Source: Escherichia coli
GTDB taxonomy: Bacteria > Pseudomonadota > Gammaproteobacteria > Enterobacterales > Enterobacteriaceae
Assembly: GCF_003334405.1 (NCBI RefSeq)
Contig: NZ_QOWM01000002.1
DNA length: 64,000 nucleotides
Strand: one strand, 5' to 3'
Shown here: one piece after another, positions 57,184 to 57,391 of the stretch
Position numbering within the stretch: position 1 is the first letter of the stretch
Layout: the number at the start of each line of letters is the position of its first letter
Made by a program: the position numbers and the translations under genes
Notes under the pieces: generated by a model
Database searches by the model: none
The model's input: only the letters and a program-made list of their open reading frames with translations
Told to the model about the DNA's origin: nothing

Positions 57184-57391
57184 AATTTTTCCTGAAGGTT
57201 GCGCTATCAAAACGCAAAAATGTTAACGAACTGGGATTTTAGTTAACCTTGCTGCGACAATTTTTGATTTAAGGCAGTTAAAGTTGTATTGGTGGTAGCA
57301 GCAATTTCATATGGAATTGTTGATTTATACCGCTATGTTATTTTTCTGATATGGCAAAATAGGATGATTGTTGAAACAGGGAGTAAAACTC

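Follow-up and report, generated by a model that had tools for sequence, protein, structure and literature searches.

The 208-bp spacer between the divergently transcribed genes ubiU and ubiT of Escherichia coli is very probably a compact, O2-responsive control region, which joins two independent FNR modules, termed F1 and F2, to a basal promoter, ubiTp1. Under low O2 (anaerobiosis or microaerobiosis), [4Fe-4S]-FNR dimers would bind both boxes, each of which overlaps the -35 region of a promoter with a good -10 and no -35, namely ubiUVp, reading leftward, or ubiTp2, reading rightward, and, judged from the geometry, FNR would recruit RNA polymerase in a class II manner. A third, weak and FNR-independent promoter, ubiTp1, supplies basal UbiT aerobically. 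As a result, UbiU and UbiV appear in the cell solely under O2 shortage, and UbiT and the product of the downstream gene yhbS (hqbA) are always present and boosted anaerobically. Since UbiT is available at all times, cells can shift between the O2-independent and the O2-dependent pathway. The region accounts for the continued production of ubiquinone in enteric bacteria once O2 disappears, and the regulation of UbiUV and UbiT bears on nitrate respiration, on the anaerobic synthesis of pyrimidines and on colonisation of the gut (PMC10470549).

The FNR switch between ubiUV and ubiT is already known and was dissected experimentally in 2023. A preliminary description of the region, working from sequence only, picked the right regulator without naming its sites, and the present re-examination is of confirmatory value. 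What is added here beyond Arias-Cartin 2023 are conservation, spacing and position weight matrix (PWM) statistics, as well as a leader hairpin, a pair of GTTAAC blocks and a relic palindrome; these last three elements appear to be unreported so far.

All positions refer to the window, i.e., the whole stretch of 64,000 nucleotides that was analysed. The spacer is bounded by the following translation signals:

57183-57181, minus strand: start codon ATG of ubiU (RefSeq annotation, open reading frame)
57195-57189, minus strand: Shine-Dalgarno sequence TCAGGAA of ubiU (part of 57181-57195), nearly invariant among 80 Enterobacteriaceae
57379-57383, plus strand: Shine-Dalgarno sequence GGGAG of ubiT (part of 57379-57394)
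57392-57394, plus strand: start codon GTG of ubiT, conserved in all 79 orthologous loci

The preliminary description had placed an AT-rich spacer of 208 bp between divergent ubiU and ubiT genes at 57184-57391. These coordinates are exact, the flanking genes are ubiU and ubiT in the RefSeq annotation, and the GC content of the spacer is 34.1% versus 52.0% for the window, which puts it in the bottom 0.5% of all stretches of this length. The minimum for a 208-bp stretch (GC 0.28) is found at approximately 36800-37000, near yhbX-leuU as judged by collinearity with strain ER1709. The spacer is 100% identical to positions 3301277-3301484 of MG1655 (NC_000913.3), the larger segment 56968-57668 is 100% identical to 3301000-3301700 on the reverse strand of the same genome, and, out of 5426 complete E. 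coli genomes, 5425 match 56900-57700 with an identity of 99% or more. Compared with the E. coli K-12 ubiUV/ubiT promoters dissected by Arias-Cartin 2023, the window is no different: it has the same sequence, the same boxes F1 and F2 and the same three promoters.

Three FNR-type half-sites occur in the spacer, TTGAT at 57264 and 57320 and ATCAA at 57206, where 0.62 would be expected from the density in the window and 0.90 from composition-matched shuffles, a borderline excess (P(>=3) = 0.058). The half-sites had been pointed out before, and the proposal holds for the two TTGAT motifs, which sit in F1 and F2, but fails for the lone ATCAA, which lacks both a partner half-site and conservation, and makes up the loop of a predicted ubiUV leader hairpin. 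The earlier reluctance to name a full consensus site was justified: TTGAT-N4-ATCAA is absent from the 208-bp spacer, and the best two matches have three mismatches each. A plain consensus search that allows three mismatches is uninformative, as it returns 282 matches in the window versus approximately 236 expected. A generic sigma70 scan of the region returned one marginal site and recovered none of the three real promoters (0/3), as expected since these are activator-dependent or weak. Rfam yielded a sub-threshold chance match only (CRISPR-DR22, 21.9 bits versus a gathering score of 50) and no curated covariance-model match, and the spacer holds no plausible small open reading frame.

The two FNR modules comprise the following elements:

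57264-57277, no strand assigned: FNR box F1, TTGATTTAAGGCAG, 7/10 to the consensus, activates ubiUVp
57222-57248, minus strand: core of ubiUVp, with the transcription start site (TSS) at about 57227-57228, the discriminator CCCAGTTC and the -10 hexamer TAAAAT at 57241-57236
57320-57333, no strand assigned: FNR box F2, TTGATTTATACCGC, 7/10 in E. coli, activates ubiTp2
57352-57367, plus strand: core of ubiTp2, with the extended -10 element TGgCAAAAT at 57352-57360 and the TSS at about A57367

A PWM scan distinguishes these boxes. The matrix was symmetrised and built from the 31 other motifs in Table 2 of Grainger 2007, the yhbT/yhbU site itself being left out. With 14.3 bits (training median 12.7), F1 ranks first among 63,983 positions of the window, thus bearing out the scan that had been proposed as a check, and dinucleotide shuffling of the spacer attains this score in just 0.8% of cases (P = 0.008). 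The second-best match falls into the yhcC-gltB spacer, a published FNR target, and serves as a positive control. That AT-rich intergenic region (approximately 3944-4617) holds a cluster of high-scoring matches (ranks 2, 6, 9 and 19; 4179-4262 and 4468), and the AlignACE site at 4543-4556 scores below these neighbours. F2, at 5.2 bits and rank 190, cannot be told apart from chance by its sequence (P = 0.85 in shuffles). Motif scanning cannot find this functional site, which becomes visible only via conservation and spacing.

FNR-type control had been expected from the function of the genes, and published experiments on the identical sequence establish it for both divergent promoters. The boxes were defined as F1 = TTGATTTAAGGCAG, 36 nt upstream of the ubiUVp TSS, and F2 = TTGATTTATACCGC, 33 nt upstream of the ubiTp2 TSS and 19 nt downstream of the ubiTp1 TSS (Arias-Cartin 2023, mBio, PMC10470549). 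In a delta-fnr strain, GFP fusions assayed in the presence and in the absence of pBAD-fnr revealed that ubiUVp and ubiTp2 are activated by FNR and that ubiTp1 is not, being constitutive (PMC10470549). Replacement of TTGAT in F1 (mutF1) abolished UbiV production; mutation or deletion of F2 (mutF2, delta-F2) led to a loss of anaerobic UbiT induction with the basal level kept, on the plasmid as well as on the chromosome (PMC10470549). These fusions and TTGAT mutants are the anaerobic reporter assays with half-site mutations that the preliminary description had called for. The modules work independently of each other, as the F1 mutation leaves UbiT unchanged and the F2 mutation leaves UbiV unchanged (PMC10470549). 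Mapping of the published primers places the ubiTp2 fusion at 57297-57478; accordingly, it lacks F1, yet it responds to FNR. An independent laboratory reported a roughly 35-fold anaerobic induction of UbiT, which is Fnr-dependent and ArcA-independent (PNAS 2023), and O2 limitation induces yhbUV in Dickeya, Pectobacterium and E. coli.

Occupancy by FNR, for which chromatin immunoprecipitation had been proposed as a check, has also been documented by others. A ChIP-chip peak was recorded at yhbT/yhbU, where AlignACE predicted a site that equals F1 in reverse complement (Grainger 2007), and ChIP-seq assigned yhbUV to Category 1, i.e., directly activated on account of a peak and FNR-dependent induction, with sigma70 occupancy and expression higher without O2, one called FNR site and no known TSS (Myers 2013). 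The ChIP datasets are given on genome version.2 and were converted, the ybcL anchor supporting this version. The offset between versions.2 and.3 at the locus, which we take to be 1,977, then sets the positions in the window. Upon conversion, the centre of the Myers 2013 peak falls on 57270, and the centre of F1 is 57270.5; the yhcC ChIP-seq peak falls on 4539, beside the yhcC/gltB motif of Grainger at 4543-4556. ChIP cannot separate two boxes 56 bp apart.

For a footprint across the family, we gathered 79 orthologues of the locus from further species of Enterobacteriaceae, whose UbiU is 92-99% identical; together with E. coli, this gives 80 sequences. In all 79, ubiU and ubiT are divergent, ubiT starts with GTG and the spacer measures 205-245 bp. 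In parts of the spacer, DNA next to the boxes included, change has reached saturation (0-40% identity to E. coli). Within F1, 13 of 14 positions are conserved at 98% or more, including the right half GGCAG, which is non-consensus and yet kept across the family. F2 reaches this level at 11 of 14 positions, with another at about 90%, and TTGTTGATTTA and CCGC are invariant within it. The majority of genera carry F2 as TTGATTTACGCCGC, which matches 6/10 consensus positions; its right half is GCCGC in the majority and ACCGC in E. coli, and GCCGC shares one matching position with ATCAA. Both boxes have the 8-mer TTGATTTA in common, and each combines a perfect TTGAT with the symmetric C of the other half. 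Following the ubiUV -10, the CCC discriminator is invariant in the 80-sequence alignment, and so are TATGGCAAAAT and A57367 at ubiTp2.

The spacing within each module is rigid. F1 lies exactly 22 nt from the ubiUV -10 (TAAAAT) in 73 of 73 spacers, and TGGCAAAAT, which forms the extended -10 element of ubiTp2, begins exactly 32 nt past the start of F2, again in 73/73. The distance between F1 and F2 is variable: it is shortest in Escherichia (56 bp), reaches up to 67 bp and is most often 65 bp. The spacer thus consists of two rigid FNR modules and a free linker, an arrangement that matches the genetic independence of F1 and F2. Relative to the TSSs, the centre of F1 (57270.5) ranges from -41.5 to -43.5 according to the TSS chosen, the published TSS giving a nominal -42.5 or -43.5 versus the canonical -41.5, and the centre of F2 (57326.5) is at about -40.5 (-39.5 to -41.5) of ubiTp2, as calculated from the TSS in PMC10470549. 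With boxes approximately 41.5 bp upstream of the TSS, over the -35 region and at a fixed distance from the -10 (73/73), spacing and TSS geometry put both F1 and F2 at class II positions, from which we infer class II contact with RNA polymerase.

The class II FNR sites of pyrD, ynfE, pykA, nikA and focA lie at -38.5 to -40.5 (Myers 2013, Table 1). The ubi promoters resemble such promoters in that a box covers the -35 region, the -10 is good, no -35 is recognisable and the box keeps a constant distance from the hexamer (22 nt at ubiUVp and 21 nt at ubiTp2). They differ in that F1 and F2 each pair a perfect half-site with a poor one, and in that the poor halves are invariant. Mere tolerance of degeneracy would not predict invariant poor halves (GGCAG; GCCGC/ACCGC). 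A further comparison is offered by Pseudomonas aeruginosa, where the same three genes serve O2-independent ubiquinone synthesis and are needed in anaerobic respiration, but form a single ubiUVT operon instead of the divergent units found in E. coli.

The main residual rival to a pair of direct FNR modules retains F1 as the only true FNR site and takes the TTGAT of F2 for an UP- or -35-like determinant of ubiTp2, or for the target of another factor, with an indirect effect of FNR on UbiT. Such a reading can invoke the chance-level score of F2 (5.2 bits, rank 190, P = 0.85), the 6/10 match of the majority form TTGATTTACGCCGC, the one FNR site listed by Myers 2013, a weak YciT ChIP-exo signal over 57298-57327 and a literature in which no published in vitro FNR footprint or EMSA was found for F1 or F2. 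It has to contend, however, with the strong activation by pBAD-fnr of a ubiTp2 fusion devoid of F1 in the delta-fnr background, with the removal of induction by mutF2 and delta-F2 on plasmid and chromosome, and with an invariant TTGATTTA core, which is common to F1 and keeps a fixed class II distance to the -10 in 73/73 spacers. We regard this rival as improbable, and direct contact of FNR with F2 as the likely state of affairs.

Two other explanations have next to no probability left. If the TTGAT motifs were incidental in AT-rich DNA and anaerobic control were exerted by another regulator, e.g., ArcA, the abundance of three-mismatch sites (282 in 64 kb) and the borderline half-site count (P = 0.058) would be natural; this explanation is refuted by the published site mutants and opposed by the ChIP occupancy and the FNR dependence, UbiT is unaffected by ArcA, F1 is the top PWM match, and the boxes are nearly invariant amid saturated neighbours. 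Equally far-fetched is a single FNR dimer at F1 that acts in both directions and drives the two divergent promoters from one shared site, which would accord with the single ChIP peak centred on F1 and the single site called by Myers 2013. The reciprocal mutants contradict it, in that the F1 mutation spares UbiT and the F2 mutation spares UbiV, as does the ubiTp2 fusion without F1; moreover, the distance between F1 and ubiTp2 varies by 11 bp among genera, unlike that of a phased upstream activator. The evidence accordingly favours two modules, each with an FNR box of its own, and a third promoter with the following elements:

57264-57300, plus strand: constitutive promoter ubiTp1, with a putative -35 TTGATT at 57264-57269 and a putative -10 TATTGG at 57287-57292
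57287-57303, no strand assigned: degenerate relic of a PdhR-type (GntR/FadR-family) palindrome, TATTGGTGGTAGCAGCA

The TSS of ubiTp1 is at about A57300, as derived from the published position of F2 19 nt downstream (PMC10470549), and a 17-bp spacer separates the putative hexamers, of which the -35 would coincide with the left half of F1. In 72 of 72 spacers, a conserved GTATTG block is found at exactly +22 relative to the start of F1. Relative to ubiTp1, F1 is centred at -29.5 and F2 at +26.5, a geometry by which FNR might dampen this promoter; any such dampening would be small, because the F2 mutant keeps basal UbiT anaerobically.

The sequence over ubiTp1 harbours a palindrome, ATTGrY-N3-rYCAAT, in 75 of the 80 spacers, at a fixed offset of +24 from the start of F1; its equivalent in the window is 57288-57302 and covers -10 to +3 of ubiTp1. 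Among orthologues it extends to a 17-bp form, TATTGGT-N3-ACCAATA, which occupies +23 to +39 relative to the start of F1. The outer five pairs of the 17-mer can pair in 71-78 of the 80 spacers; symmetric co-variation within the palindrome was not significant in naive Fisher tests. The 15-bp PdhR core ATTGGT-N3-ACCAAT is perfect in 12 spacers (ten from Citrobacter, two from Salmonella), has one mismatch in 27 and two in 25, i.e., at most two in 64/80. The five Escherichia sequences have lost the right arm (ATTGGT GGT AGC-AGC AAT), and removal of one AGC would restore a box with one mismatch; the window thus holds GGT-GGT-AGC (10/14) in place of an intact GGTnnnACC core.

The PdhR consensus is AATTGGTnnnACCAATT (PMC7660256). 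In comparison with the PdhR boxes of ndh and cyoABCDE, which follow this consensus, the ubiTp1 sequence of Citrobacter and Salmonella is a perfect 15-bp core, the palindrome lies over -10 to +3 in a position like that of a repressor operator, and the target likewise belongs to quinone and respiratory metabolism. The difference is that the window has lost the right arm (ATTGGT-GGT-AGCAGC, 10/14), and the E. coli PdhR gSELEX table contains no yhb target (PMC7660256); no literature linking PdhR to ubiT was found. The pattern suggests a putative ancestral operator of the GntR/FadR type on ubiTp1, lost in Escherichia via a 3-bp AGC duplication, and the palindrome would suit LldR, or a different FadR-type regulator, just as well as PdhR. 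If this were true, most Enterobacteriaceae would couple their aerobic UbiT supply to pyruvate or to carbon status.

Between the ubiTp1 TSS and F2 extends the only non-conserved stretch:

57301-57316, no strand assigned: variable linker that joins the module of F1 to that of F2, 0-60% conservation to E. coli

Directly upstream of F2, at 57303-57318, the linker carries a near-perfect 16-bp palindrome, AATTTCATATGGAATT, which was rejected as a conserved operator, being confined to Escherichia (5/80 spacers) and located in the variable linker. The weak YciT ChIP-exo signal mentioned above (S/N 4.1) maps to 57298-57327 and covers AATTTCATATGGAATT. E. coli strain EEC_W5 carries a 768-bp IS1 in the spacer, flanked by an 8-bp target duplication, CAATTTCA (57302-57309); the insertion falls into this non-conserved stretch and parts ubiTp1 from ubiT, and both FNR modules stay intact. 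The strongest ChIP-exo site of YbcM, an AraC-type regulator of the DLP12 prophage (S/N 470), was put between ubiT and ubiUV (Gao 2021). Converted from genome version.2, it maps to 57439-57453, i.e., 48-62 nt inside ubiT (codons 17-21) and outside the spacer. At the other end of ubiT, yhbS (hqbA), which codes for an Hfq-binding acetyltransferase, overlaps the gene by 7 nt (57910-57916) and is co-induced with ubiT by FNR; the literature also proposes a separate promoter internal to ubiT (PMC10710024).

On the ubiUV side, two invariant GTTAAC blocks (57222-57227 and 57242-57247), 20 bp apart, bracket the -10 of ubiUVp. FNR binding alone does not explain these blocks, nor the invariant non-consensus right halves of the boxes. 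ArcA was considered and rejected as their cognate factor, given the 20-bp spacing versus the 11 bp of ArcA repeats and the lack of an ArcA effect on UbiT, and no literature link of ArcA to the GTTAAC blocks was found. Further downstream, the transcript would form a hairpin, whose loop is the ATCAA at 57206:

57199-57217, minus strand: stem-loop of the ubiUV 5' leader, TTGCGTT-TTGAT-AGCGCAA, predicted -7.3 kcal/mol

A leader hairpin is predicted in nearly every genus, with stems that differ in sequence (TTGCGTT/AGCGCAA, TGCGCC/GGCGCA, GCGACC/GGTCGC, CGATC/GATCG). RNAalifold on a MAFFT alignment of the leaders returned no structure, the stems being out of register, and was replaced by z-scores for each sequence: the leaders have a median folding z of -2.09 versus shuffles (49 of 64 below -1.5), and the control linker has -0.13. 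These values point to a hairpin that is kept in structure and not in sequence, although its conservation is only suggestive, because the sequences are related. That a PdhR- or LldR-type operator on ubiTp1 was lost in Escherichia, and that the hairpin and the GTTAAC blocks provide ubiUV with a post-transcriptional or second-factor input, is a tentative proposal to which we give rather less than even credence. Operator loss in one lineage and a conserved leader hairpin constitute modest, testable leads. In Klebsiella and Raoultella, a T-run follows the leader hairpin.
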